From: a virus
Length of the DNA: 64,000 nucleotides
Direction: 5' to 3' (one strand)
IMG/VR virus record: IMGVR_UViG_3300031994_000034
The notes under the pieces were generated by a model. That model was not told where the DNA came from, did no database searches, and saw only the letters and a list, made by a program, of their open reading frames with translations. Shown here in pieces: positions 3,620 through 50,042 of the stretch. The position numbers and the translations under genes are program-made. Position 1 is the first letter of the stretch. Every line of letters begins with the position of its first letter.

Positions 3620-4081
3620 ATGGCAGACAACAGTTATGCAGTAACGAACCTGCGCACTATCAAAGAAAACATCATGGCCTACGCAAGCCATGCAGAAGGG
3701 TATCAGTATTCACCGCTCTATGAGAAGATAGAGGCGGCACAGATAGCCGTACAGCAGCTTATCGACGCTATTAGCGGCGAACCTGCCGACACGACACCTG
3801 CGGACGACCCGGCGCAGGATGTCTATGCCGAGTACAGCGCGGACATGCGCAAGGCGGTGGCTTATGTCAACGAACAACTGGAGTCGGAGGACAAGGCCAT
3901 TATTTGTGCCAAGGTGGATAAAAACTTCCGGCAACACATGAACCCCTCCTACAACATTGATGACGACAAGATCATCGACCTGCTGGAAGAATACGGTGCG
4001 GACCACGACCTCCCGGAAGGGTGGTGGGAAGAGGAGGCAGACATCGACGACATCGTGCTGCTGATTAACTTCGAGATGTAG
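3620..4081 (+). CDS. hypothetical acidic protein
   Basis: ATG at 3620 within the track ORF 3614..4081. Confidence 0.65.
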   Translation: MADNSYAVTNLRTIKENIMAYASHAEGYQYSPLYEKIEAAQIAVQQLIDAISGEPADTTPADDPAQDVYAEYSADMRKAVAYVNEQLESEDKAIICAKVDKNFRQHMNPSYNIDDDKIIDLLEEYGADHDLPEGWWEEEADIDDIVLLINFEM

Positions 4082-4108
4082 GTCACACAGATAGCACAGA
4101 TAACACGG
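4082..4108 (-). repeat. CTGTGnTAT 9-mer array (inverted orientation), 3 units
   Basis: The reverse complement reads CCGTGTTAT CTGTGCTAT CTGTGTGAC. Confidence 0.85.
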
Positions 4109-4167
4109 AAAGACAATTCATAATTCTTGCGCCGCTACGCTCTGCAAGCGAACAAGTTCGAGCGCAT

Positions 4168-4188
4168 AATTCATAATTCACAATTTAT
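4168..4188 (+). repeat. heptamer array AATTCAT AATTCAC AATTTAT
   Basis: Read directly. It abuts ATG 4189. Two more units lie at 4116-4129. Confidence 0.8.
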
Positions 4189-4590
4189 ATGGAAAAGATG
4201 ACTAAACAACAGGCTATTCAATACATCACGGACCTGATGGCGACCATTCAGGCAGCGTACTTCAAAGGACGAATGGAGGGGCATACGCTGTGGGTGCATG
4301 AGAGAATGGACGACAGTGCGGCTATCAGCATTGACCTCTACAACTTCGGAGGTGACGGCAAGCCGGTGTGCGAAGGTCTGCTGCCTTGCACCGTCACCTA
4401 CGACGACAGCTCGCAGGGTAAAGGTTGGCTCTACTGCATGTGCTACAATCCCGACGATGTGACGCCCCTGACATTCATCTTTGACAGCGATGCCTTCGGC
4501 GACATCAACCTCGACCCGGAGGATGTACACGAAGATGTGCTGCAGAACATCGCCACATGGCTGGAACAGGCTATGCGGCCTATCAACTAA
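4189..4590 (+). CDS. hypothetical protein
   Basis: 133-aa ORF. Confidence 0.65.
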   Translation: MEKMTKQQAIQYITDLMATIQAAYFKGRMEGHTLWVHERMDDSAAISIDLYNFGGDGKPVCEGLLPCTVTYDDSSQGKGWLYCMCYNPDDVTPLTFIFDSDAFGDINLDPEDVHEDVLQNIATWLEQAMRPIN

Positions 4591-4629
4591 ACCACGAATT
4601 TTTCACTATTCACTTTTAACTTTTCATTT

Positions 4630-4887
4630 ATGTTAAACATTGTTATCACAGGCTGTTTTAACAAATCAGCCATCGACGGCTATGGCCGTCAGGCCGTGCG
4701 CTCTATGATAGCGCACTGCGGACACAAGGTTTGCTCTGAGTTGAGCAGCAAGACCGACTATCTGTGCATTGGCACCGCCAACGTGCCGGGCAGGGGAGTG
4801 GGACCGGCCAAGATGCAGAAAGCGAAGGCCCTCGGCATCCCCGTCATCACGCTGGACCAGTTGCAGGCACTGCTCGACGTCGCGTAA
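4630..4887 (+). CDS. stand-alone BRCT-domain protein
   Basis: The pattern 'IVITG...SSKTDYLCIG...G.AKMQKAKALGIPVITLDQLQALL' matches the C-terminal BRCT module of NAD-dependent ligases. Confidence 0.65.
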   Translation: MLNIVITGCFNKSAIDGYGRQAVRSMIAHCGHKVCSELSSKTDYLCIGTANVPGRGVGPAKMQKAKALGIPVITLDQLQALLDVA

Positions 4888-5486: not shown

Positions 5487-7211
5487 ATGAACTTATTTAC
5501 GAATAACCCCGATTTCTATCCTACGCCCAAGGAGGTTATCGGGCAGATGATGATGGGCGAAGAAGTGACTGGCAAAATCATTCTGGAACCGAGTGCCGGC
5601 AGCGGAAACATCGTTGACTGGCTGAAGGAGAATGGCGCAGCGGAGGTGATTGCCTGCGAGAACGACCCGCATTGCAGGAAGCTATTGGCTGACAAGTGTC
5701 GGTTGGTGGCAGACGACTTCCTGACGGTGACGAGCGAGCAGGTGAGTCACGTGGATATGATTGTGATGAACCCGCCCTTCTCGAAGGGCGTCGAGCACAT
5801 CCTTCACGCTTTCGAGATTGCGCCTCCGGGATGTACGGTGATTGCGCTTTGCAACGCTGACAGTGTGAGTGAACATCACAGCTACAGCCGCAACCAAATC
5901 CTGTACGAGAACATCCAGCTCTATGGCTACACGGAGTGTCTGGGCAAGGTGTTTGAGACCGCCGAGCGCAAGACGAGCGTGGTGGTGTCGCTGGTGAAGC
6001 TCTATAAGGAGGGCACGGGCGAAGAGGAATGGCAAGACTATATTTTCAGCCAGCAGGACGAGGACGCACTGAACATGAACGAGACAGAGGGACTGGTGCA
6101 GTACAATGTGGTGCGCGAAATGGTGAACCGCTACATGAGTGCCGTGAAGATGTTCGACGAGGTGATGGAGATGACACAGCGCATCAACGAGACGGCACGT
6201 GCTACGGATGGAAAGTATGATGCACCACCTATTGAGTTTCGTGCCGTAGAGTCTCGCGATGGTCGTGCCACTACCGTCACTCGTGAGGAGTACAAGAAGC
6301 AGCTGAAGAAATACTATTGGCGCACTATCTTCCGGATGCTGAAGATGGGGAAGTACGAGACACAATCGCTGCGTGAGCAGATGAACCGCTTTGTGGAGAA
6401 ACAGGTGAACGTGCCTTTCACGATGGGTAACATCTACAGGGTGCTCGACATGATTGTGCAGACGCACGGCCAGCGTATGCACAAGGCACTGGTGGAAGCC
6501 TTCGAGAATATCTGTTCTTTCAGTGCTGAGAACTCCACGGCTGGCGAGAAGTGGAAGACGAATGCGAACTACATGGTTAACCGCAAGTTCATCATCCCCT
6601 ATATGTGCGACGGCTACGACTGGGAATATTCTGGGGAAGCCTGGAGTATGGCCCGCAAGAGGGTAGGGCGCGAGTATGTGGAAGTCAGCGGTTCCAGTGT
6701 AGAGGAGATGTACGATGTCTGCAAGGCGCTGTGCTACATGACTGGGCGCGACTACAACGAGATTCCTTCACTGCCTGGTGGGTATGGTGGCCGGCGTGTC
6801 GCATGGAACACTTGGTTTATCTGGGGCTTCTTTCGCTGCAAGGCGTTCAAGAAGGGCACTATGCACTTCGAGTTCCTGGACGAGGACGTGTGGTATAAGT
6901 TCAATGCCGAAGTTGCCAAGACAAAGGGCTGGACACTGCCCAAGAAGAGCGACGGTTGGCAGCAGTCTCCGTCGAAACTCATTCCCCGCATCGACAAGGG
7001 CGACCTATTCCGCTGCAAGAAGGATGTGAAATACAGTGATGGAACAATGGCGTACCGCAAGGATATGGTGTACCGCTCCGAACGGGAACATGGTTATTCC
7101 TTGGGTTTCATTACCAACGAGAGCGGAAACGCAAACCACGCATGGCCTATCTATCAGGACAAAGGCAAAGGTGTGGACGACTGGCGCGACTGGTTCGAGA
7201 AAGTAGCATGA
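5487..7211 (+). CDS. N6-adenine DNA methyltransferase with a long C-terminal domain
   Basis: SAM-binding motif 'ILEPSAGSGNI' and catalytic motif 'VMNPPFS' in the N-terminal 120 aa. Confidence 0.8.
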   Translation: MNLFTNNPDFYPTPKEVIGQMMMGEEVTGKIILEPSAGSGNIVDWLKENGAAEVIACENDPHCRKLLADKCRLVADDFLTVTSEQVSHVDMIVMNPPFSKGVEHILHAFEIAPPGCTVIALCNADSVSEHHSYSRNQILYENIQLYGYTECLGKVFETAERKTSVVVSLVKLYKEGTGEEEWQDYIFSQQDEDALNMNETEGLVQYNVVREMVNRYMSAVKMFDEVMEMTQRINETARATDGKYDAPPIEFRAVESRDGRATTVTREEYKKQLKKYYWRTIFRMLKMGKYETQSLREQMNRFVEKQVNVPFTMGNIYRVLDMIVQTHGQRMHKALVEAFENICSFSAENSTAGEKWKTNANYMVNRKFIIPYMCDGYDWEYSGEAWSMARKRVGREYVEVSGSSVEEMYDVCKALCYMTGRDYNEIPSLPGGYGGRRVAWNTWFIWGFFRCKAFKKGTMHFEFLDEDVWYKFNAEVAKTKGWTLPKKSDGWQQSPSKLIPRIDKGDLFRCKKDVKYSDGTMAYRKDMVYRSEREHGYSLGFITNESGNANHAWPIYQDKGKGVDDWRDWFEKVA

Positions 7212-19009: not shown

Positions 19010-19342
19010 ATGAACTACCATGTAAAAGAAAAATGGGTCTCCAAACCGTGTAATTGCAGAAATGAGTTTGCGACGCCACGCGACCATCATCAGTATGGAT
19101 ATGAGACTGAACATGATTTTTCAGCTGCTCTCCATAGACTGCACAGCCGATGGTCGGGCTGGACGGGTACGGAGATCGGCAGGCGCAACGGCTTCATCCG
19201 TCTGCGCTTCGTGGGCGTCTATGGCGACGTGAGCAACGTGTGGCTCCCGGACTTCATGCTGGAGCGCGTGCCGGAGCCGATGGGCGACACGAGTGGCGAC
19301 AGCACGGAGGAGCTGCTTGACGAGATATTCAAGTTCGACTAA
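19010..19342 (+). CDS. hypothetical protein
   Basis: 110-aa ORF. Confidence 0.65.
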
Positions 19343-19356
19343 ATACACCAATCACC

Positions 19357-19500
19357 ATGACAAGAGAACAGTATATAGAGCGCATGGCCCGTGCGATGTA
19401 CGGCGAGCGCTGGCAGTGTGCCGAGGCACAAGAGAAGGCCTCCCGCATGGCGGACAAGGCGGCTGCGGTATATCCATTCGACACGGAGGAACAACCATGA
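19357..19500 (+). CDS. hypothetical small protein (47 aa)
   Basis: ATG ORF whose stop overlaps the infA-like start (ATGA). Confidence 0.45.
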
Positions 19501-19724
19501 GCAAGCAAGATTTCATCAAGACTAAGGGCAAAGTGACGGAAGCCCTCGGCGGCGACCGCTTTCGCGTGGAGTTGGAGAATGGTGCCGTCATCCTCGGCAC
19601 ACTCTCGGGCAAGATGCGGCAACGGCATATCCGCGTGATGCCAGGCGATGCGGTGGAAGTGGAAATGTCGCCCTACGACCTTACGCGGGGACGGATAGCA
19701 TACAGGTATAACAAACAACGATAG
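19497..19724 (+). CDS. infA: translation initiation factor IF-1 homolog
   Basis: The 75-aa product '[75 protein letters not shown]' is collinear with bacterial IF-1. The blocks [27 protein letters not shown] are shared. Confidence 0.9.
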
Positions 19725-21877: not shown

Positions 21878-23677
21878 ATGGAACAAATAACCCTACTTTA
21901 CATCGACCTCTTCTGTGGCGCGGGCGGCACCAGCAGCGGCGTGGAGTATGCCCGCGTGGACGGCAGAAAGTGCGCCAAGGTCATTGCCTGTGTCAACCAC
22001 GACAAGAATGCTATCCTCTCGCACCAGGCCAATCACCCGCACACGCTCCACTTCACCGAGGACATCCGCACGCTGGAACTGTCGCCGATGGTGACACACC
22101 TGCGGAAGATGAAGGCGAGATACCCAAAGGCTCGTGTGGTACTATGGGCCTCACTGGAGTGTACGAACTTCTCAAAGGCCAAGGGTGGTCAGCCCCGCGA
22201 TGCCGACAGCCGCACACTGGCAGATCACCTGTTCCGCTACATTGAGGCACTCGACGTTGACTACATCCAGATAGAGAACGTGGAGGAGTTTATGTGCTGG
22301 GGAGCGCTCGATGAGAACGGTAAACCCGTGAGCAAGGACCAGGGCAGCGACTACCTGCGGTGGGTGCGCAAGGTGCAGGAATATGGCTACGACTTCGACT
22401 GGCGCATCCTGAATGCTGCCGACTTCGGAGCATACACCTCGCGCAAACGCTACTTCGGGCAGTTTGCCCGCCGTGGGCTGCCCATTGTCTTCCCCGAACA
22501 GACCTACGCGAAGAATGGCGACGAGGGAGGTCTCTTCAAAATGTACCACAAGTGGCGTGCCGTCCGCGACGTGCTCGACCTCGACGACGACGGCGAGAGC
22601 ATCTTCACCCGCAAGAAGCCACTCTGCGAGAAGACGCTGGAACGCATCTACGCCGGCCTGGTGAAATTTGTGGCAGGAGGAAAGAAACAGTGCGAGGCGT
22701 GGATTCTGAAATACAACTCCATGAACCAGCAGAACCACCACAACGCACCCTCCCTCGATGAGCCGTGCCCCACGGTGGCGTGCCAGAACCGCCTCGGACT
22801 GGTGAAGTGTCAGTTCCTCTCGAAGCAGTTTAGCGGCGACCCTGACAGCAAGAACATCGACATCGAGCAGCCTGCCGGCACCGTGACCACCATCGACCAT
22901 CATGCACTGGTGTCATCAAGGTTCCTTACGGAGTATTTTGGTGGTGCTGACCACAACCATAGCATCGAGGAACCTGCGACCACTGTGACGACCAAGGAAC
23001 GTCACGCCTTTGTGACGGCATACTACGGGAACGGCTACAACTCGTCGATTGACAGTCCTGCACCCACCGTGACCACGAAGGACAGGATTTCTCTCGTGAG
23101 CACGAAGTTCATCGCCAACGAATACAGCGGCGGCGGTCAGCTCTCCAGCATTGAACAGCCGAACCCCGCCGTTCTCACTACGCCCAAGCAGAAAATTGTT
23201 ACCTGCAAGCCGTGGTTGATGAGCACCGACTTCAATAATGTCGGAAGTTCTGTTGATGGGCCGGCACCAGTTATAACAGCATGTCACAAATATCATTACC
23301 TGATGAATCCCTATTCATTCAAGAGCGACGGCGGCAGCATCGAGAAACCTTGCTTTACGCTGATAGCGAGGATGGATAAGATGCCGCCCTACCTCATTAC
23401 CACCAAGGAGGGCGAGGTGGGCATCGCCATCTACGAGAGCGACAGCCTCTGGACGCGAAAGGTGAAGGAGTTTATGGCTGCTTATGGCATCATCGACATT
23501 TGTATGCGTATGCTGAACATCGGCGAACTGAAACGCATCATGGGCTTCCCCACCGACTACGTTCTCGTAGGTACCCAAGCCGAGCAAAAGAAATACATCG
23601 GCAACGCCGTGGAGGTGAACATGAGCCGCGTGCTCTGCGAGGCACTGGCCCGGAAACTTGAAAGTATTAACAAATAA
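21878..23677 (+). CDS. DNA (cytosine-5) methyltransferase with an expanded, internally repeated variable region
   Basis: Motif I 'DLFCGAGG', catalytic Cys motif 'SLECTNFS', 'QIENV', 'TSRKRYF' and motif X 'IGNAVEV'. Seven tandem modules of the type S-I-E/D-x-P-x-P-T-V-T-T lie between motif VIII and the C-terminal motifs. Confidence 0.85.
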   Translation: MEQITLLYIDLFCGAGGTSSGVEYARVDGRKCAKVIACVNHDKNAILSHQANHPHTLHFTEDIRTLELSPMVTHLRKMKARYPKARVVLWASLECTNFSKAKGGQPRDADSRTLADHLFRYIEALDVDYIQIENVEEFMCWGALDENGKPVSKDQGSDYLRWVRKVQEYGYDFDWRILNAADFGAYTSRKRYFGQFARRGLPIVFPEQTYAKNGDEGGLFKMYHKWRAVRDVLDLDDDGESIFTRKKPLCEKTLERIYAGLVKFVAGGKKQCEAWILKYNSMNQQNHHNAPSLDEPCPTVACQNRLGLVKCQFLSKQFSGDPDSKNIDIEQPAGTVTTIDHHALVSSRFLTEYFGGADHNHSIEEPATTVTTKERHAFVTAYYGNGYNSSIDSPAPTVTTKDRISLVSTKFIANEYSGGGQLSSIEQPNPAVLTTPKQKIVTCKPWLMSTDFNNVGSSVDGPAPVITACHKYHYLMNPYSFKSDGGSIEKPCFTLIARMDKMPPYLITTKEGEVGIAIYESDSLWTRKVKEFMAAYGIIDICMRMLNIGELKRIMGFPTDYVLVGTQAEQKKYIGNAVEVNMSRVLCEALARKLESINK

Positions 23678-36703: not shown

Positions 36704-39700
36704 TTAGATATACATAATCTCCATCGTCACCAGTCCTAATCCCGATTGGTTGCTCACCTGATATTCCATCTTGCGGATAAAGCCAGTAATGTCGCCCACA
36801 CGGACACGTTTCGTCTTGTCGATGCTGAGCAACTGCGCCAACTCCATGCGCACGGTCATCCTGGCGATGCGGGCATTGCGCACCCAGTAGGAATACTCCT
36901 TGTAGAACTGGTCCATCAGGCCCCTGCCCCGCAGGTTCGGGTTGGTGATTTCCAGATAGCGACGGTTGATAGCGCTGATGTTTACAGGTTCCACTTCTTC
37001 TCCTTCTGCAGCATAATAGACAGCCTGAAGTTGGTGCAGAATTTCCGCACGCTCTTCTGTGGTGTCAATGTCGAGAATAAGATGCTGTGTGTCATGCGCA
37101 ATGATTTTAGAACTTGCCAACCCTTCAAACGTATTCACATAACTTTGCAGTTGTTCAGGAGAAAACACCGTGCCATCTTCGCATATTGGAGTCCATAGTA
37201 TCTCATGCACTTTCCCGTCGCTGTACTCTACGCCCTTTCCGATGCTGTATATAGTGGCATAGTCACCCGCTTCGGCGCTCCATCCTGCGGCCCTCATAGT
37301 GGCCCCGCTAACAATCGGACGTGCGAGCAGGTTGGTATTGGCCGTCTTGTAAAGGCTCTGCATTGCTTTTGCAGCTTCGGTTTTGGTTTTTATCACACCG
37401 CCAAGTGTCGGGTCAAAGTCGGGATTGGGCTTCTCGGAGCGGAGCTTCAAGGACACAGCTCCACTTGTGGAAGTCTCGTCGTCGTAGTCGTAACAGGCGA
37501 TGGCGTTACCTTCATTATAGTAAGTCGCGACGTTTTTCAGGACGTCGCTTGGCTTTGTCGGATTTATTCCGATGATCATATTACTGGCATAAATGCCTTG
37601 CCAGGTATGTCCAGCTGCATCCCTTGCGAGTATGGTGTCGATGTCTGTGGGGGGAGTGTCGTCGGTTCCGTTCTGCAAATAAGAGATGTATTCCTGCATG
37701 AAATCGTATCGCATCAGTGCGTTGTTGCCGTTGACGCAGCACAGCCAGATGGTATATGTATCCCCGTCGGCGCTCATTATGGTGTCTGCCGTTGCATAAT
37801 ACCCCTCGTTTGACAGGAGTAGAAGTCTCGGCCTGTCAGATATGTAGTAAGTGTCTATAATGTTATATATATCGGGGCGGCGTGGATGAGGACCCTTTCT
37901 GGTTTTGAGGTCACATTGGTTTGTACACCCAGCCTCTGCGAGCAGCTTATCTCCATACTCATAACCTGTAAACGGTTGCATGGTACTCCGTAACCATAGT
38001 TCGCCCATGTCATTGCAAATATCAGGGTTTGCAGAGGCTGAATCACCTGGCATGGTAATCCAATAGTCATTCCCCTCGCCCTCTTCCGTGTCAGACTCAT
38101 ATATTGTGCGGCCCGCGTAGAGAGAAGAGGTGCTTCCGCGCAAAATGCCCAAAGACAATCCCCAATCCATATCTTCCAGTGGCGACAGCATTTCGTCGGT
38201 AATCTTGAAGTTGTCGTCCAGATATAGTCGATAGCCTTCGCGGATCCACCCCGTCAGCTTATAAGTGAACGTCCGTCCATTTTTCGTGAAAGAGATTGTC
38301 TCGTTTCCATTTTCGTCGGTGGCCTTGAAGGAGACCGGAGTGGCAACTTCGAGAAGGCCGCTCCTATACTTAGGCTCTTCCTTTGTGTTTGTATAGCCCC
38401 CATTGCTATATATGAGGCTATCTTTCATCTTTTCCAGAAATTCGGATGGTGTGGTATCAATAGCTCTTTTATAGTTATTTGACTGCCCAAGATATTGGGC
38501 GGCTGCGTCGGCGTTTTTGTATGGCACGCCCATCTCTTTGCTTATGAAGAATGCGTAGTTCATGCCGACGCGGCTGTAATCTATAAGTGACGTGTCAGTA
38601 CTGGAGGCTCCAGACGGTTCTTCAACGGCAGACATGATGGCTGGGGTGAAGTTGATGTGAACCTCCTCGATCGTTTCGTCCTCTCCAGTGCAGTTGCCAT
38701 CCTCTGCATCCATATACTGTGCGCATTCAAAAAGCGAGGGGAACGGATCGTTGCTGGCATCCTTGAAATCCTCGTCAATCTTTACGACGTAGGAATTACC
38801 CGTATTCATTGCCACGTAGCATGTCGGGCTTAGGCACTTAGCGTTGTTTAATATGGGCGTATAGTTTTCGTAGAACTCAAACTTTGTATAATCGTGTGCC
38901 TCGGGTGGAAGTTCCCAGTTGCCTTCGTTTTTTTTCTTTGCAAGCAAGAATCCCTTATAGTTGTATGCCGTATTATCCTCGCCTCCGCCGTAGGTGAGGC
39001 GAAAGCCGCGAACACAATTATCTCTTTTTTCTGCAGAAATAATGGTTCCTTGTATCTCGTGAATGTCCTGTGAGCGGAATATATTCCTCAGTAGAAGAAC
39101 TCGGACCAGTGTGTAGTCCTTGTTAAATGCGAGGCGAACGCCGAAGCCTGATTCCAGCCCATTGATCACTTCTTGAATGTCCACGTCGGGAAAGTTGCCG
39201 CTCGTGGCATAGGCAGGCTGCCAAGTTACATCCTCTACGCCAACGCCAACGTTGGTTATCACTGCTTCGTCTATATCAAACGCCTCATAAAAATTTTTTT
39301 CCCATGCCGGCTCGGCTTTTATCGACCATGAGGGCTCTTCAGTAGATGGCTGCGGAACAAATGGAGTTGATTTCCCGAATGGCATATAGTCGCCTCTGTA
39401 AGTCTTGTCGTCTTTTGTTTTGTATGCGCACTTGGTATTGACAAAGAACAGACGGCACAAATCTTCGACGTTCAGCATCTGATTTTCCTCTATGGTAATC
39501 CCGAGGTGTTTCATTAAAAGTTTGAACCAGTACAGTACGTAGAAGTTGGGAGCCGGGTTGATGCGGCGTGGCGAACTCACGTGGTAGCCTCTGATGGCAT
39601 TTTCCTCCATGCTGGAACCGTTGCTTTTGTATTCGCGGTCCTGATAGCATATCGTCACATTGCAATATGGGTGTCCATCGTCATAGGCAATGTCTGTATT

Positions 39701-40351
39701 GATGGTGTCGGCTACGCTTAGCGTGTATTCGTCATCAGTGTCGGATTCCTTCCATGTTCCGTCTGGCCTGACAAATTTCGGAAATATCTGCGACTTAAAA
39801 TCCTTGCTTACTAATCGCGCATTATTAAGCAATAAGTATGTGGGTGGGTAGCCAAATGTACGATCAATATTGCTTAGGTGTGAAACTCTGATTTCGACAT
39901 TGGTTCTGAGAAGTTCCCTTTCTCTGTCCACCGCCATACCGATGAGTATGTCGTCTGATATAGGAACCTGATTGGCCTTTGCCCCTTCTATCATTTCCTC
40001 AAACGTTTTCTGGCCAGACTCAAAAGTGACATCCACGTTTCCGTCCTTGTCCACCTCCACCTCGTCGGCCAGGCGCAGGTAGCCCAGGAAGAGAGGCAGC
40101 CCCTCCACCCACAGCCGGGCCTTGCGCTTGTCAATCTGTTCGTGCAGGCGCGAGCCGTGCATCTCTCCGGCAGTACCGAATATGTGTGCGTTAGCGGGTA
40201 TATTCAGCTGGAAGTCGTGACTCCACAAGTTACCCTTGTCGAATATCTCCGACGTGTCCGTGATGCTGATAGACGCATTCTCAGGCAGCCACGCATATTG
40301 CGATGCCCCGTTTTTCTCTCTCGACAGTATTTCCAGTGCCAGATGTTCCAT
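36704..40351 (-). CDS. large virion structural protein (tail/baseplate or fibre candidate), 1215 aa
   Basis: Long uninterrupted ORF adjacent to the fibre/DGR module. No catalytic motif recognised. Confidence 0.8.
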   Translation of the reverse strand: MEHLALEILSREKNGASQYAWLPENASISITDTSEIFDKGNLWSHDFQLNIPANAHIFGTAGEMHGSRLHEQIDKRKARLWVEGLPLFLGYLRLADEVEVDKDGNVDVTFESGQKTFEEMIEGAKANQVPISDDILIGMAVDRERELLRTNVEIRVSHLSNIDRTFGYPPTYLLLNNARLVSKDFKSQIFPKFVRPDGTWKESDTDDEYTLSVADTINTDIAYDDGHPYCNVTICYQDREYKSNGSSMEENAIRGYHVSSPRRINPAPNFYVLYWFKLLMKHLGITIEENQMLNVEDLCRLFFVNTKCAYKTKDDKTYRGDYMPFGKSTPFVPQPSTEEPSWSIKAEPAWEKNFYEAFDIDEAVITNVGVGVEDVTWQPAYATSGNFPDVDIQEVINGLESGFGVRLAFNKDYTLVRVLLLRNIFRSQDIHEIQGTIISAEKRDNCVRGFRLTYGGGEDNTAYNYKGFLLAKKKNEGNWELPPEAHDYTKFEFYENYTPILNNAKCLSPTCYVAMNTGNSYVVKIDEDFKDASNDPFPSLFECAQYMDAEDGNCTGEDETIEEVHINFTPAIMSAVEEPSGASSTDTSLIDYSRVGMNYAFFISKEMGVPYKNADAAAQYLGQSNNYKRAIDTTPSEFLEKMKDSLIYSNGGYTNTKEEPKYRSGLLEVATPVSFKATDENGNETISFTKNGRTFTYKLTGWIREGYRLYLDDNFKITDEMLSPLEDMDWGLSLGILRGSTSSLYAGRTIYESDTEEGEGNDYWITMPGDSASANPDICNDMGELWLRSTMQPFTGYEYGDKLLAEAGCTNQCDLKTRKGPHPRRPDIYNIIDTYYISDRPRLLLLSNEGYYATADTIMSADGDTYTIWLCCVNGNNALMRYDFMQEYISYLQNGTDDTPPTDIDTILARDAAGHTWQGIYASNMIIGINPTKPSDVLKNVATYYNEGNAIACYDYDDETSTSGAVSLKLRSEKPNPDFDPTLGGVIKTKTEAAKAMQSLYKTANTNLLARPIVSGATMRAAGWSAEAGDYATIYSIGKGVEYSDGKVHEILWTPICEDGTVFSPEQLQSYVNTFEGLASSKIIAHDTQHLILDIDTTEERAEILHQLQAVYYAAEGEEVEPVNISAINRRYLEITNPNLRGRGLMDQFYKEYSYWVRNARIARMTVRMELAQLLSIDKTKRVRVGDITGFIRKMEYQVSNQSGLGLVTMEIMYI

Positions 40352-41006: not shown

Positions 41007-43940
41007 ATGACAAGCACAGACAGAATCACACTGGCCAGACTCGCAGCCTTCCACGACGAACTGCGCAAGGGCCTCAAGAAGGGCGACATCGACGTCAACG
41101 CCAAGAACCTCACATCCTGGGACGAGCGCGACGCGCTGGCCGTGCAGAGCTCGTTCGCAACACTCGTCCGTACCACCGCAGGCGAAGATTCCATCGACAG
41201 CGAGCGCGGAGCACGGCCCGTGAGTCTCGTGGCAATCTCCGACTTCAGCGCCGCCGAACTGCGCGAGACGGGATTCAACCTCCTGCGCAACGCACCCACC
41301 GTGGGAGCGGGCTACTACATGCTGTTGCCCAAAATGGAGTTCGGCTCCTACGGCACCGCAAACAAGGTTAACGGACTGCTCTTCACCGACAAGGACGGCA
41401 ACAACCTCACCCCCACCGTGCGCTTCCGCCCCCTCAGCCAGGGCGCTCCGACGCGCGTCACCGACGGCGACGCCTGCACCTATGTGGACAGCAACGGTCT
41501 CCGATTCTACACCACCCCCGACGTGGGCTACGTCATCGTCAGCGGCATCAACCCCGCACAGGTATGCGCACACCTGGCCTGGAGTCGGCGCTACGATGAG
41601 TATGTCGCCATCGACAGCGAGGCCGACACAGGCTCCACCATCAACCTCTCGGCCATCATCACGGCCTGCCACGACTTCGGGCTCCTGCTCGTGGCCACGC
41701 AGAACGGCATCACCGTGGCCGACAGCATCACCTTCGGCGACACCGCAGCCACGTGGCACCGTCGCGTGGGGCGCACTCAACCCGCGTGGACCAACACGCA
41801 GCAGGAGAGCGGAGAGTGGCTACACGAAGCCACCATTGCCGATATGAAGGCTGGAGGCGTCGTGGAGTGCGGAGAACTCGCACTGACCAGTGCCGGACAG
41901 ACCGTCAGCTACACCGACCGCAACGAGGATGCCACGACCGCCTACGTCAAGTACGAACTCGCCACCGTGGTCACAGGCACCGTCGCCGTCTCGCCCCTGA
42001 TGAAGGTCGAGGACTGGGGAGTAGAGGTGCTGACGCAGGCCACGGGCACCGCCGAGGTGACTCTCCAGTACGCGCAGAACTACCCCGACGCCGTGGCCGA
42101 GATGGTCAACGGTGGAGTGCAGCGACGCACTGCAGCGCTGGAGGCGCAGATCCTGGCCCTGCAGCAGGCCGTAGGCGGCATCGGAGCCAAGGCCGAAGGA
42201 TACATCCGCGTGGCAGGCTCATCCGACCCCGCACTCAGCTACAAGAGCTACAAGTTCGACGAGACGGGTGGCTTCCAGCGCGACAGCGTGTTCAACATGC
42301 TCTACCCCTGTCTTGTTGGTACCAAGCTCACCGGCGACAATACTCAGGTGGGAAAAATCCTCTACGTCCTGAAAAAACTCGGCGCACGCACAGCCACGGC
42401 TGCCGACGCTGGCTTCACCGAGGGGCAGGCCGTATGGGACGACATCTACGGCACACCCCATGCCATTGACGGCTCCGAGGGCGACGTCATGATTACCAAC
42501 ATCGACCTCTACTACCGCATCAAAGGCAAGTTCCCCGTGCAGGGCACGGAGTATGACGTATATCTCGTCGCACCCACGCCATTCACCTGGCAGGGCTACG
42601 AGGCCGAGGCAGTGACGCGCCGCGGCGTCAGCCCCGACTACTGCGTCAGCCACACCGACACCGACAGCGTGGTGCGTATGCACTCCGTCTATAACCCCGC
42701 GTGGGACGGCTCCTACAACGCGCCCGCAGGCGTGGTGGGTAAGTACATCTACAGCCAGGACGCGCAGACGGGAGTAATCACCGAGCAGTACGACGAAACG
42801 GCTACCTTGCTTGGCGGGGCAGGAGGATGCAGCAGCACCGACCTCGCACTCTACACGGGCGAGCAACACGCCATGAACCACAACCCGGACACCACGAAGA
42901 TGCTGCCCTTCGCCAACCAGACGGCAGCCTCCGTCGAGGACTGGTACGCACTCATGCTTGCCGAGGGCGGCACCTTTGATGCCCACAAGGCAGCACTCAT
43001 GGGCAGCGGATTCTCCAGCAACGACCCCGCCACCTCTGCCGCCGACTGGGAGGAGAGCGCCGCAGGGGCCAAGAACGGCATACGCATCTACGACAAGGAG
43101 GGGGTTCCAAGGTACTACTCGCCATCCGGCAACGCTGAGACCACTATCGGTCTGACGGACAGCGCGGACAAGCTCTTCGGAACCATCGTCAACTCGTACC
43201 GCACGCCCTTCAAGGTGATGGAGGCTCACCGCGCCGTCAGCTACGCCGTCGCCCACGGCATCGGCGAGCTGCAGTGGTTCATCTTCGAGGGCAACAAATA
43301 CAAGTACCGCTCGGTCGATGGCTTTGCCGGACCGCAGCAGGGCGAGATGACTTGCGTGGTGTGGAAGATGCTCTCCACCAAGCTCGGAGCATCATGCTTC
43401 GACCCCACCGACAAGACCACCAGCATCGAAGGCCACCGCATAGATTTCCTCTTCTCGACAGCCCTCTTCCACGGCATCACCACGCAGGTGTCACCGTCGT
43501 GGTGGGTGAGCGGTCTCGTCTTTACCGAGGACGAGAACCAGGCCTACGAGGCATACCTCCAGATCGACCCGTCCAAGCTCGCGCTGACACCCAACGGTGA
43601 GAAGGACGTGGCCGACAGCTGGCCCTTCGAGCAGGACTACGAGCACGCCGCCTCATACGCCTCCGGCAGCGGCTACCGCAAGAACTACGCCCGTCAGTCG
43701 CTCTTCCTCGCACCCGACAATGCCAACAAGAGCGGCGCAGGACTCCACACCTACATCGGTGCGTATAATTACTACTCAGGCACTGCGGCTGCAGCAGGCA
43801 AGAAAGCGGTGCGCGGCTTCCGGCGCGGCGCCCGCGTGATCAACGCGTACCTGTCTCCGCTCTGCGTGGTCGCCGGCAGTGCGCCCTCGTACGCGTACAC
43901 GGGCCTCGCGTTCGGCACCTGTGTGCGCATCGTGGACTGA
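41007..43940 (+). CDS. DGR target protein: 977-aa tail-fibre/receptor-binding candidate with a C-terminal variable region
   Basis: Long late ORF. Its last 45 codons contain the VR that matches the downstream TR except at TR adenines. Confidence 0.9.
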   Translation: MTSTDRITLARLAAFHDELRKGLKKGDIDVNAKNLTSWDERDALAVQSSFATLVRTTAGEDSIDSERGARPVSLVAISDFSAAELRETGFNLLRNAPTVGAGYYMLLPKMEFGSYGTANKVNGLLFTDKDGNNLTPTVRFRPLSQGAPTRVTDGDACTYVDSNGLRFYTTPDVGYVIVSGINPAQVCAHLAWSRRYDEYVAIDSEADTGSTINLSAIITACHDFGLLLVATQNGITVADSITFGDTAATWHRRVGRTQPAWTNTQQESGEWLHEATIADMKAGGVVECGELALTSAGQTVSYTDRNEDATTAYVKYELATVVTGTVAVSPLMKVEDWGVEVLTQATGTAEVTLQYAQNYPDAVAEMVNGGVQRRTAALEAQILALQQAVGGIGAKAEGYIRVAGSSDPALSYKSYKFDETGGFQRDSVFNMLYPCLVGTKLTGDNTQVGKILYVLKKLGARTATAADAGFTEGQAVWDDIYGTPHAIDGSEGDVMITNIDLYYRIKGKFPVQGTEYDVYLVAPTPFTWQGYEAEAVTRRGVSPDYCVSHTDTDSVVRMHSVYNPAWDGSYNAPAGVVGKYIYSQDAQTGVITEQYDETATLLGGAGGCSSTDLALYTGEQHAMNHNPDTTKMLPFANQTAASVEDWYALMLAEGGTFDAHKAALMGSGFSSNDPATSAADWEESAAGAKNGIRIYDKEGVPRYYSPSGNAETTIGLTDSADKLFGTIVNSYRTPFKVMEAHRAVSYAVAHGIGELQWFIFEGNKYKYRSVDGFAGPQQGEMTCVVWKMLSTKLGASCFDPTDKTTSIEGHRIDFLFSTALFHGITTQVSPSWWVSGLVFTEDENQAYEAYLQIDPSKLALTPNGEKDVADSWPFEQDYEHAASYASGSGYRKNYARQSLFLAPDNANKSGAGLHTYIGAYNYYSGTAAAAGKKAVRGFRRGARVINAYLSPLCVVAGSAPSYAYTGLAFGTCVRIVD
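43808..43922 (+). other. DGR variable region (VR)
   Basis: 115-nt gap-free match to 44188..44302. All 18 mismatches lie at TR adenines. Confidence 0.9.
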
Positions 43941-43981
43941 GACGAAGACAGAGGAGCGTAGCGACGACGAAAGCGAAAACC

Positions 43982-44003
43982 GCGCGGCCCGAAAGGGCTG
44001 CGC
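43982..44003 (+). other. GC-rich hairpin with a GAAA tetraloop downstream of VR
   Basis: 9-bp stem (gcgcggccc / gggctgcgc, one G-U pair) with loop GAAA, 42 nt after the target stop. A second 7-bp GC hairpin lies at 44007-44025. Confidence 0.7.
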
Positions 44004-44187
44004 CCCGCCGCCGCCCAGCGGCGGCCAGCTCCCAGGGCAGAGGTGTCGCCTGCCCAACACTGAAATCCATGCCGACGGCCAGCGGCGCAAGCGAATCGGA
44101 GTAGCCGCCGTCGGTGAGGTTGATGCCCGGCAGTGTGCGCGGCGCCCCACGCCGCGACCACAGGGTTACAAGGCAGCTGCACTGTAC

Positions 44188-44302
44188 GGTGCGCGGCTTC
44201 CGGCGCGGCAACCACGTGAACAACACGAACCTGTCTCCGCTCTACGTGAACGCCAACAATGCGCCCTCGAACGCGAACACGAACATCGCGTTCGGCAACT
44301 GT
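44188..44302 (+). other. DGR template repeat (TR)
   Basis: AAC/AAT-rich copy of the VR carrying 27 adenines, located between the target gene and the RT. Confidence 0.9.
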
Positions 44303-44598
44303 AAAGCAAAGCGTCTCGCGGTTTCCCCCGCGATATTCCCAATAAGTCCTCCAGCAGCCCCGACCTGAGCCGCACGGAGGCAGGTGCAGAGCCTGGCTGA
44401 CGAAGAGAGCCGAACAACGCAAAGAAAAGGTGCCAAAACCACCAGCCGACCGGGCACAGTGCCCAGCGGTTTACCCGCTGGAATCACGCATAGCCAAGAC
44501 AGGGTAGGCTGCCGTATAGTCAAAAGCGGCAATCGGCGCACACAGGTCACACAGCGCCCGGAGGTTTCCCCACCGGGACAAAAAAAGAGAAGAAAGCA

Positions 44599-45939
44599 AT
44601 GTCCATATCCACCTGGCACAACACCCTCGCCGCCCTCCCAGCTGCCGTACACGACAGTTACATGGCCAAGACCGCTCGCCAGCGCTCTAAGCGCGAGGTG
44701 CAGCGCGTCATGGCCGATGTGGACACCTTCTGCCGCCAGAAACAAACAGAACTAAAAAACAATACCTACCGCGTAGGCCCCTACCGCCACTTCCGCCTTA
44801 CGGACAAGAAGAAAGAGCGAGACATCAGCGTACTCCCCTACTCCGACCGCTGCGTCCAGAACGCCGTCAAGGATGCCATACAGCCACTGCTCCTCCGACA
44901 GATGACCGATGATATGCTGGGAGGGCTCCCGGAACGCGGTGTTTTAAGCGCAGTGACGAGATATTCTGTCGTGAAAAAAATACGGCGACTGATGAACGAC
45001 AAATCGCTAAGATACTACCTGCAGGGCGACATCCGAAAGTTCTACGACTCCATCGACAACGTAGTGGCCATGAGGCTCATCGAGCAAAAAGTCAAGGACC
45101 AACGGACACGCGCGCTCATCAGGCAGCACATCTTCAACCAGAAGCGGCTGGCCATCGGCGACCCCTTCTCTCACCTCATCGCCAACCTCGTCATGTCCTG
45201 CGTCATCCGTAAGGCAAAAGCCAAGTATGGTCGTCGCATCCACCTCATCAACTTCGCAGACGACTTCATAGCCTTCGCCAAGGACAAAGCCACCCTTACC
45301 GCCCTCCGCAGCGACATGAACCGCTGGGCCAAAACCCTCCGCCTCCACTACAAGCCCCTCTACATCCGCCCCGTCACCCATCCCCACTGTGCCTGGCGGT
45401 TTTCCCGCCCGGCCCCCATCACCTTCTGCGGCTACCGCTTCGGCCCCGCCTACGTCCACCTCACCCGCCGCACCAAGCTCCGCTACATCCGCACCCGTCA
45501 TCGCCGCCGCTCCCTCGCCAGCTACCAAGGCATCCTCGCCGTGGCCGACACACGCCACCTCCGTCACCTCATCCAGTACAACGACAATCACCATATGACA
45601 GAGAAAATACGTCGCCCCTTCGCGGGGCGCCCCATGAAGATTGAAACACTCGAAGGCATACCACACACCATCGTCAATGTCGTCGAGAAACCGTCGCGAC
45701 AGCGCGACAGCGAAACCTACATGCACGTTCAGGCTATCGCCGACGGACTCGGACTCATCGTCTATTCCACCGCAGCATCCAAGATATGCGCCTACCTCCG
45801 TGCTGCATACCGGCCAGGAATGCCGATGCCAGACATGCGCATCGTCCACGACTGGAGCGGATTCTACTACGAAGGCACCGTCTATACCGACGCCGAGGAA
45901 GAAGAAATGATACGCAAGCAATACAACATACCCAAGTAA
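44599..45939 (+). CDS. DGR reverse transcriptase
   Basis: RT motifs 'ERDISVLPYSDRCVQNAV', 'YYLQGDIRKFYDSID', 'LAIGDPFSHLIANL' (the DGR-type [ILV]GxxxSQ block, here ending in SH), the catalytic 'INFADDFIAF', and 'FCGYRF'. Confidence 0.9.
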   Translation: MSISTWHNTLAALPAAVHDSYMAKTARQRSKREVQRVMADVDTFCRQKQTELKNNTYRVGPYRHFRLTDKKKERDISVLPYSDRCVQNAVKDAIQPLLLRQMTDDMLGGLPERGVLSAVTRYSVVKKIRRLMNDKSLRYYLQGDIRKFYDSIDNVVAMRLIEQKVKDQRTRALIRQHIFNQKRLAIGDPFSHLIANLVMSCVIRKAKAKYGRRIHLINFADDFIAFAKDKATLTALRSDMNRWAKTLRLHYKPLYIRPVTHPHCAWRFSRPAPITFCGYRFGPAYVHLTRRTKLRYIRTRHRRRSLASYQGILAVADTRHLRHLIQYNDNHHMTEKIRRPFAGRPMKIETLEGIPHTIVNVVEKPSRQRDSETYMHVQAIADGLGLIVYSTAASKICAYLRAAYRPGMPMPDMRIVHDWSGFYYEGTVYTDAEEEEMIRKQYNIPK

Positions 45940-49989: not shown

Positions 49990-50042
49990 GCCATTCTTGC
50001 GCCCTGCGGTTTTCCCGCAGAGCCTCCCTCCCTTTCCCGAGT

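Follow-up and report, generated by a model that had tools for sequence, protein, structure and literature searches.

A probably active diversity-generating retroelement without a separate accessory gene targets the C-terminus of a 977-residue phage protein

In the diversity-generating retroelement (DGR) of phage BPP-1 (mtd-avd-TR-brt), the target gene, the template repeat (TR), and the reverse transcriptase (RT) gene follow one another on one strand, the variable repeat (VR) occupies the final ~40 codons of the gene for a large phage protein, Mtd, and the accessory gene bbp7/avd lies between mtd and TR, directly 5′ of TR. According to the survey by Wu et al. (2018), Avd is essential in this prototype, avd is present in 74% of DGRs with HRDC, MutS-like (MSL), or CH1 genes occurring otherwise, 29% of catalogued DGRs carry no accessory gene (“Architecture A”), and one RT lineage is without avd (PMC5758913). 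The same survey reports no distal avd for the avd-less cassettes and concludes that an Avd-independent mechanism exists (PMC5758913). Here, we analyzed a 64,000-nt stretch of viral DNA, IMG/VR record IMGVR_UViG_3300031994_000034 (hereafter the window), for which an initial annotation had proposed a complete DGR with mutagenic retrohoming into the 3′ end of the open reading frame (ORF) at 41007-43940. Our analysis upheld this proposal on the basis of A-specific mismatches, AAC-type template codons, a BPP-1-like RT, the same architecture in 15 of 15 relatives, and hypervariability of VR, and we assign a probability of about 93% to the reading that the locus is an active DGR arranged as target (VR)-TR-RT, without a separate accessory gene. 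The window shares with BPP-1 the order and common strand of target, TR, and RT, the position of VR at the very end of a large phage protein, the A-specific differences, and the AAC codons in TR; it differs in lacking avd, the place of which is taken by ~95 nt of covarying non-coding RNA. By description, it also agrees with “Architecture A1” (target / TR-RT) and with the avd-less “Lineage 3” as presented in PMC5758913, having no avd, HRDC, MSL, or recognizable accessory gene and TR followed by RT.

The VR (43806-43922, + strand) lies within the last ~45 codons of the target gene, an ORF call of 977 aa (41007-43940, + strand), and TR (44186-44302, + strand), which was delimited from the TR/VR alignment and is near-identical to the TR of the related scaffold L021, follows in direct orientation at a distance of 380 nt between the copies. 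Read directly from the window sequence, nt 43808-43922 and 44188-44302 aligned without gaps over 115 nt with 18 mismatches, every one of which involved an adenine of the downstream copy and never a C, G, or T, so that the count given in the initial annotation (18 of 27 adenines) was reproduced on realignment and no non-A mismatch appeared in the window pair. Over these 115 nt, TR is composed of 27 A, 41 C, 30 G, and 17 T, and under a hypergeometric model, 18 mismatches would all land on these 27 of 115 positions with a probability of 9.9 × 10^−15. The repeat, previously given as 43808-43922, could be extended by 2 nt upstream to 43806/44186 with one further A-to-G mismatch, yielding 117 nt with 19 of 28 adenines substituted; its stochastically mutagenized core spans 43830-43905. 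A pattern allowing any base at TR adenines matched exactly two sites in the 64 kb (0 expected from 100 shuffles), and neither this pattern nor a relaxed 60-nt sliding scan detected a third copy or a second, remote VR in the window. The design of the template was equally distinctive in the frame of ORF 41007-43940, with TR adenines distributed 14, 13, and 0 over codon positions 1, 2, and 3, 12 codons reading AAC or AAT, and no stop codon reachable through adenine substitution. The 16 variable codons correspond to ~9 × 10^15 possible proteins, and the two amino acid strings quoted earlier for the gene copy and the template, together with their 14 differing codons, were correct. An 84-aa ORF lying over TR (44114-44368) was rejected as a real gene, being without conservation in relatives and simply TR read in frame. 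Two direct copies 380 nt apart might also be left by an ordinary duplication or gene-conversion cassette that never involved reverse transcription. We regard this explanation as practically negligible, given that 18 of 18 differences fall at one base of one copy (P about 10^−14), that adenines are kept out of codon position 3, and that the pattern recurs in 16 other related loci beside the same RT.

Scanning IMG/VR with the RT recovered 20 loci at 61-68% identity. In every relative with enough upstream sequence (15 of 15), the upstream gene ended in a VR and a TR preceded the RT by ~240 nt, and the TR/VR pairs of these IMG/VR relatives differed at 6-20 positions each, exclusively at adenines in 13 of 15 and with one non-A mismatch each in L009 and L020. 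A VR-type repeat end was present in 26 related loci, and the tabulated TR/VR pairs mismatched almost only at adenines. The same held for a relative with a split RT, L026, which has a VR/TR pair with 10 mismatches, all at A; another locus, L025, contains both a TR and a VR-type end. An exact-pattern scan of IMG/VR with TR gave 0 matches, the pattern being too specific, and megablast of the cassette against the 50,697 GenBank phage records of INPHARED gave no match.

Comparison of close relatives revealed that variation is concentrated in VR. L021, an ENA scaffold 96.4% identical to the window over 17 kb, differed from it at 17 of 115 nt in VR, 15 of them at TR-adenine positions, and at 1 of 115 nt in TR, with 6 differences in the 800 nt upstream of VR. 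Four near-identical backbones carried four different VRs. The 90%-identity cluster of the target protein contains 14 members, one of them identical to the protein of the window. Among 14 full-length copies (the window's protein and 13 cluster members of 977 aa), we found 11 VR alleles; the mean pairwise difference was 27% over the final 45 residues and 0.8% over the remaining 932, and all 14 sites with at least four alleles lay within residues 942-967. VR is therefore far from invariant across relatives. Because diverse VR alleles sit on near-identical backbones, the element appears to be active in nature, and 11 alleles on proteins differing by 0.8% elsewhere are what continuing mutagenic retrohoming predicts and are hard to square with a fossil.

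The RT ORF (44599-45939) encodes 446 aa and starts 297 nt past the last TR base; its length, this offset, and the motifs GDIRKFYDSID, IGDPFSHLIAN, and NFADD had been given correctly. Residues 1-334 (44599-45600, + strand) constitute a Brt-like RT proper, including the thumb motif SYxG..ADT, as indicated by Pfam, PHROG, PDB, and hhalign matches. This part matched Pfam RVT_1 (E 1.2 × 10^−16) and the PHROG reverse-transcriptase family phrog_1423 (E 9 × 10^−50), and its best PDB match was the BPP-1 DGR RT (bRT, 8ub7), both by sequence (E 1.4 × 10^−15, phmmer) and by fold (E 7 × 10^−15 and a template modeling score of 0.73 on the target, from a Foldseek search with an AlphaFold model of mean predicted local distance difference test [pLDDT] 77). 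A profile of 45 RT homologues matched residues 48-321 of Brt at 98.5% probability (hhalign), with the thumb motif inside the matched region, while identity to the BPP-1 RT was about 22-28%. By sequence, profile, and predicted fold, the adjacent RT is thus of the DGR type. The catalytic FADD is intact rather than disrupted and aligned with the YMDD of Brt, and R74, I186, F219, A220, and D221 were invariant in the 45 homologues, with D222 nearly invariant. R74 and I186 are the equivalents of bRT R74 and I181, which were shown experimentally to promote adenine mutagenesis (PMC7826257). The next-best matches were group II intron RTs and maturases (TIGR04416, 2.9 × 10^−22, far below cutoff; 6ar3, E 6 × 10^−13). 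The window departs from group II introns in having neither an intron RNA nor a maturase or endonuclease domain, in its adjoining TR/VR pair, and in bearing the signature IGxxxS(H) instead of QGxxxSP (PMC7826257). Identity as a group II intron, retron, or defence RT was rejected, all such NCBIfam models scoring far below their cutoffs. In INPHARED, tblastn with the RT retrieved a mixture of RTs annotated as DGR or retron enzymes, all of them with less than 32% identity.

The 3′ boundary of VR was marked by a difference of another kind. The last of the 18 mismatches, A44298 in TR against C43918 in VR, is fixed and without randomness: VR copies read TTCGGCACCTG in 27 of 27 cases (window and related loci), with CACCTG in all, and TR copies read TTCGGCAACTG, TTCGGCACATG, or similar at the same spot (AACTG, ACATG, AAATA, AACTA). 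The threonine encoded at the C43918 codon is fixed in nearly all target homologues. By analogy with BPP-1, the invariant GC-rich block at the 3′ end of VR (TCGCGTTCGGCACCTGT; 43906-43922, + strand) is probably the initiation of mutagenic homing (IMH) site, and the fixed VR/TR difference would be the IMH/IMH* discriminator. Farther downstream, a GC-rich inverted repeat (43982-44004, + strand) is predicted to fold as DNA into a 9-bp stem with a GAAA loop (GCGCGGCCC GAAA GGGCTGCGC), and such a hairpin or cruciform is a candidate part of the target site. BPP-1 likewise has a GC stem closed by a GAAA loop downstream of VR, and target recognition by phage DGRs needs a hairpin or cruciform with a GC stem of 7-10 bp and a 4-nt GRNA loop (PMC3240598), a form that the repeat in the window fits. 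Directly 5′ of this hairpin, we observed a conserved A-rich repeat (CGAAAACGAAAAC; CGAAAGCGAAAAC in the window, 43960-43981), which recurs at equivalent places in many relatives, including L001, L004, L008, and L016, and which could belong to the target site or to a promoter that drives the TR RNA.

Several observations weigh against reading the locus as an active DGR of this layout. The signature motif of DGR RTs is [I/V/L]GxxxSQ (PMC7826257), and here it reads IGDPFSH, with Q replaced by H invariantly in the 45 homologues and I, G, and S kept; from the sequence alignment, we take IGxxxSH to be a variant of the signature rather than its absence. No Avd Pfam family and no four-helix-bundle family was found among the 84 window ORFs, and no conserved ORF occurs in the VR-TR gap of the window and 15 relatives. 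The downstream GC hairpin begins 59 nt past VR, compared with the reported 4-34 bp (PMC3240598), and GC hairpins are also present at this place in relatives, but their loops differ; its role is uncertain because both the distance and these loops deviate. The VR of L021 differs from its own TR by two T-to-C changes at non-A positions (equivalent to window 43867 and 43906), which probably arose by ordinary point mutation or through an occasional error of the RT. The models fall short of establishing how the target folds and what it does, and activity is deduced from allele diversity across samples rather than within one population. A decayed or now inactive DGR whose TR/VR differences are fossils would agree with the indirect nature of the activity evidence, the departure of the RT signature from canonical SQ, and the missing Avd. 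Yet such a relic would hardly show 11 VR alleles among 14 copies that differ by 0.8% elsewhere, nor a VR that differs by 15% from that of the 96.4%-identical L021 next to a TR that differs by 1 nt, and the RT ORF is intact, with catalytic and fidelity residues invariant across 45 homologues. We therefore consider loss of activity very improbable.

The absence of Avd, on which the initial annotation had been silent, raises the question of what accompanies the RT. The 84 window ORFs contained no HRDC or MutS-like family either, and the VR-TR gap, 247 nt in the window, ranged from 216 to 477 nt in the 15 relatives. An Avd-like or other accessory protein might be encoded outside the 64-kb window, in the rest of a phage genome of more than 100 kb or by the host, in which case the C-terminal domain of the RT would be irrelevant to retrohoming. 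In favor of this, the window is part of a genome whose related contigs measure 126-178 kb, and avd genes are described in PMC5758913 as poorly conserved and so liable to be missed by profile searches. We nevertheless judge it quite unlikely, as an Avd match was obtained for 0 of 84 ORFs, the stretch from VR to RT is free of conserved ORFs in 15 relatives, Wu et al. report no distal avd for avd-less cassettes (PMC5758913), and the C-terminal domain accompanies the RT strictly in every lineage examined.

Where BPP-1 has avd, the window and its relatives have conserved RNA. The DNA on both sides of TR was strongly conserved at the nucleotide level (alignment A4). On the 5′ side, a structured RNA element (44030-44123, + strand) comprises a hairpin (44037-44052) and, at 44067-44119, a long helix around an invariant GCAAGCGAATCGGAGTAGCC (alignments A4 and A6). 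Of its 15 predicted pairs, 6 covaried, 97% of alignment cells were paired as opposed to 21-56% in slid controls, and the covariation score was reached in 0 of 500 shuffles. Directly 5′ of TR, a nearly invariant box, AAGGCAGCTGCACTG (44170-44184, + strand), was present in the window and in 21 of 21 related loci searched (A4). The CTGCAC of this box is complementary to GTGCAG in a spacer hairpin loop (44388-44393), and the two would pair, judging from the aligned sequences; two one-sided changes are known, both wobble-compatible. On the 3′ side, a structured spacer RNA between TR and RT (44340-44548, + strand) contains a hairpin at 44346-44381 followed by four helices (alignment A5); 8 of its 32 pairs covaried, pairing extended to 100% of cells as against 22-37% in slid controls, and the score was likewise reached in 0 of 500 shuffles. 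The hairpin at 44346-44381 covaries and holds in its loop an invariant GACCTG (44362-44367), which has an invariant perfect complement, CAGGTC, 180 nt downstream at 44543-44548, suggesting a pseudoknot or conformational switch; constrained folds of 18 sequences revealed at least five different inner-stem sequences around GACCTG. No Rfam family was recognized in a gathering-threshold scan of the whole window or in an E ≤ 1 scan of 43900-44650. The BPP-1 DGR requires RNA segments both upstream and downstream of TR, as stated in the abstract of 10.1101/2023.10.23.563531, and covarying RNA on both flanks fits this need; structured RNA on either side of TR is thus a feature common to both systems, although the spacer from TR to RT is 296 nt in the window and 144 nt from TR to brt in BPP-1.

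The window also contains short GC-rich hairpins with a GGTTTnCC-type loop (e.g., CCAGCGG-TTTAC-CCGCTGG), located at 44137-44156, 44317-44332, 44463-44481, 44557-44577, 45395-45409, and 50004-50020. In alignment A4, they are insertions specific to the lineage of the window, L021, and L022, with one common to L004 and L005. The copy at 45395-45409 lies in frame inside the RT ORF (encoding ..RFS..), in a length-variable loop of the RT, and the homologue P0108 has two RFS-type insertions in this same loop. These hairpins look like a small mobile palindromic element; a genome-wide motif was rejected, with 40 loose matches against ~31 expected and three strict hairpins.

The RT of the window is longer than Brt (446 aa versus 328 aa) because it carries an additional orphan C-terminal domain, residues 335-446 (112 aa; 45601-45939, + strand), which lies beyond the Brt-homologous part and is predicted to be beta-rich. 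This domain was highly conserved in the RT homologue alignment, and its model was small and mostly beta, with a pLDDT of about 75-85. Searches with it against Pfam and PADLOC and a profile search of PDB gave no significant match, and hhalign found no similarity between BPP-1 Avd and the RT family, C-terminal domain included. The isoelectric point is 7.1 for the domain in the window and 5.6-7.8 for free-standing homologues, compared with 9.55 for Avd; the CH1 accessory protein is described in PMC5758913 as having 160-169 aa and a pI of 4.7 and as restricted to avd-less DGRs. Among 1.84 × 10^9 representative proteins, the domain was present in 20 clusters, either as the C-terminus of RTs of ~435-445 aa or as a stand-alone protein of 109-180 aa. 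Gene contexts of the stand-alone form (L025, L026 and L027 from two different samples, and L028) showed a gene with its own ATG overlapping by 8-26 nt the stop of a Brt-sized RT (324-333 aa). Every lineage examined hence had the domain coupled to the RT, whether by fusion or through a downstream ORF that overlaps it, and this pattern of fusion and fission argues that the domain is functionally tied to the RT. Whether it might do Avd's work is a matter of speculation. A further proposal, that the domain is an undescribed DGR accessory module which, together with the 5′ RNA element, replaces Avd in assembling the RT-RNA particle and so represents a distinct Avd-independent form of retrohoming in Bacteroidales phages, is tentative and in our estimate doubtful. 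According to PMC5758913, ~20% of DGR RTs extend at the C-terminus by up to ~150 aa that lack an identifiable motif, and the extension in the window is like these; its nature as a discrete domain that exists as a separate overlapping ORF in sister lineages is unreported in the sections of that survey consulted. In L025, target-like genes with a DIYGN..AIDGSEG motif (2-1558 and 3820-4755) flank the split RT on both sides and share a 41-nt near-repeat, which suggests two paralogous targets.

These features can be arranged into a working mechanism. A non-coding transcript of ~44030-44550, with boundaries that we infer from the conserved elements, would carry TR between the structured 5′ element and the 3′ spacer. 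The RT (44599-45939) would bind this TR RNA and make cDNA, faithfully opposite U, C, and G and near-randomly opposite A, and the cDNA would then replace nt ~43830-43905 of the target gene; the priming and integration steps are likewise conjectural. Up to 15-16 Asn-, His-, Thr-, Tyr-, or Ile-templated codons (residues ~942-967) would thereby be recoded, with stops impossible. By analogy with characterized phage DGRs, the invariant GC-rich block at the 3′ end of VR (TTCGGCACCTG, against AACTG in TR) may mark VR rather than TR as the recipient, and the downstream GC hairpin probably assists. The 5′ RNA element and the orphan domain of the RT may between them perform what Avd does in BPP-1, and the diversified protein would serve as a host-recognition component of the virion.

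The identity of the diversified protein was less clear than that of the element. Homologues of the target are abundant in metagenomes, all without names; the target itself matched nothing in Pfam, PHROG, NCBIfam, or PDB sequences, and tblastn found no homologue in the INPHARED records. Outside VR, the last 310 aa are conserved (alignment A2). An AlphaFold2 model of these 310 residues had a pLDDT of 65, below 50 across VR, and a Foldseek search with it against PDB gave nothing with E below 0.3; the target profile matched no PDB sequence and scored 0.2% probability against Mtd (hhalign), so that, unlike the RT, the target has no detectable sequence similarity to its BPP-1 counterpart. Structural comparison with BFVD did return a gut-virome protein named “Receptor binding complex (Fragment)” (E 1 × 10^−14, 27% identity), a label assigned by an automated pipeline, and weakly (E 0.02) a protein named after the Treponema variable protein (TvpA). 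By eye, the VR end (..APSxAxxxxAFGTCVRIVD) resembles the Mtd end (..GPSFSFAFFGARGVCDHLILE). Among viral DGRs, annotation mostly assigns the targets to tail structures (PMC8144416). The likeliest, though unproven, reading of the modeled target is a receptor-binding tail protein with a C-type-lectin-like tip. Where the initial annotation had predicted a hypervariable receptor-binding tip on a fibre-like protein, the hypervariability of VR stood, whereas the receptor and fibre labels are not established and have a single BFVD structural match in their support; the suggested check for a C-type-lectin-like fold was run and left that fold unproven, with a low-confidence model across VR and no PDB match.

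A genuine and active DGR could instead diversify some other exposed virion protein, or one that binds something else than the primary receptor, and not the host-receptor-binding fibre. This is a possibility of some weight, though we hold it to be the less likely one: no Pfam, PHROG, NCBIfam, or PDB sequence match confers a tail-fibre identity on the 977-aa protein, none of the 50,697 phage records holds a tblastn homologue, the C-terminal model lacks a structural match in PDB and the profile is unlike Mtd, and its neighbors form a block of + strand genes without annotation, with no recognizable tail genes next to it. On the other hand, DGR-diversified tail proteins are as a rule large phage proteins with VR at the very C-terminal end, and the two BFVD matches (E 1 × 10^−14 and, weakly, E 0.02) and the visual resemblance to the Mtd end point toward receptor binding. 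Two homologues, P0138 and P0139 (alignment A2), end in un-mutagenized template sequence (..GNNANNTNLSPLTMNANN..), reflecting either assembler collapse of VR onto TR or VRs freshly reset to the template.

Since PMC5758913 records both avd-less DGRs and RT C-terminal extensions, the cassette belongs to a known type, and current understanding stands. The points that merit specialist attention are the SQ-to-SH change in the signature, the covarying RNA on both sides of TR, and the orphan domain linked to the RT. The cassette is compact, consisting of structured RNA and a single protein without Avd, and the fusion/fission domain is a candidate substitute accessory; a minimal system of this kind is potentially useful for reconstitution and for engineered targeted mutagenesis. 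For the phage lineage, it would mean that ~15 residues of a large virion-type protein are continuously redrawn, with up to ~10^16 variants, presumably tracking changes in the host surface. The viral DGRs described by Roux et al. (2021) share with this one their encoding by viruses, their origin in host-associated samples (rumen, gut), and targets without annotation outside VR that are presumed tail proteins; the relatives of the window are IMG/VR contigs of the kind screened there, in a catalogue that was automated (PMC8144416).

The window is phage-like, with a PhageMin_Tail (tape-measure-type) match and an S49-type head protease, and it belongs to a lineage with genomes of ~100 kb or more. 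Relatives of its RT occur in rumen Bacteroidales metagenome-assembled genomes; one with 46% identity is found in the isolate assembly Prevotella sp. MGM1, and one RT homologue is labelled Prevotella sp. These sequence relationships link the window to an uncultured Bacteroidales/Prevotella-type phage lineage of rumen and gut, a lineage without a close relative among GenBank phage records. No tRNA or tmRNA was found in the window.

Upstream of the cassette, the region 2080-34971 (+ strand) holds many genes for DNA modification and nucleotide metabolism. They encode several DNA methyltransferases, of which at least two are large (5487-7211 and 21878-23677), together with a MazG-like pyrophosphatase, a nucleoside 2-deoxyribosyltransferase, and proteins of the DUF4494/DUF4942 type. 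A homologue of translation initiation factor IF-1 is encoded at 19293-19724 (+ strand; Pfam eIF-1a, 1.1 × 10^−23; E. coli InfA, 1.9 × 10^−22, over ORF residues 69-139). The gene that neighbors the target on the opposite strand, at 36704-40351 (− strand; 1,215 aa), has a G+C content of 0.47-0.52 compared with 0.56-0.63 around it, especially at 36967-37408. Its counterpart in the 96%-identical L021 is 1,078 aa long, and the BLAST alignment of the two breaks at 36967/37408, suggesting that a domain was inserted or exchanged in another large protein of virion type.

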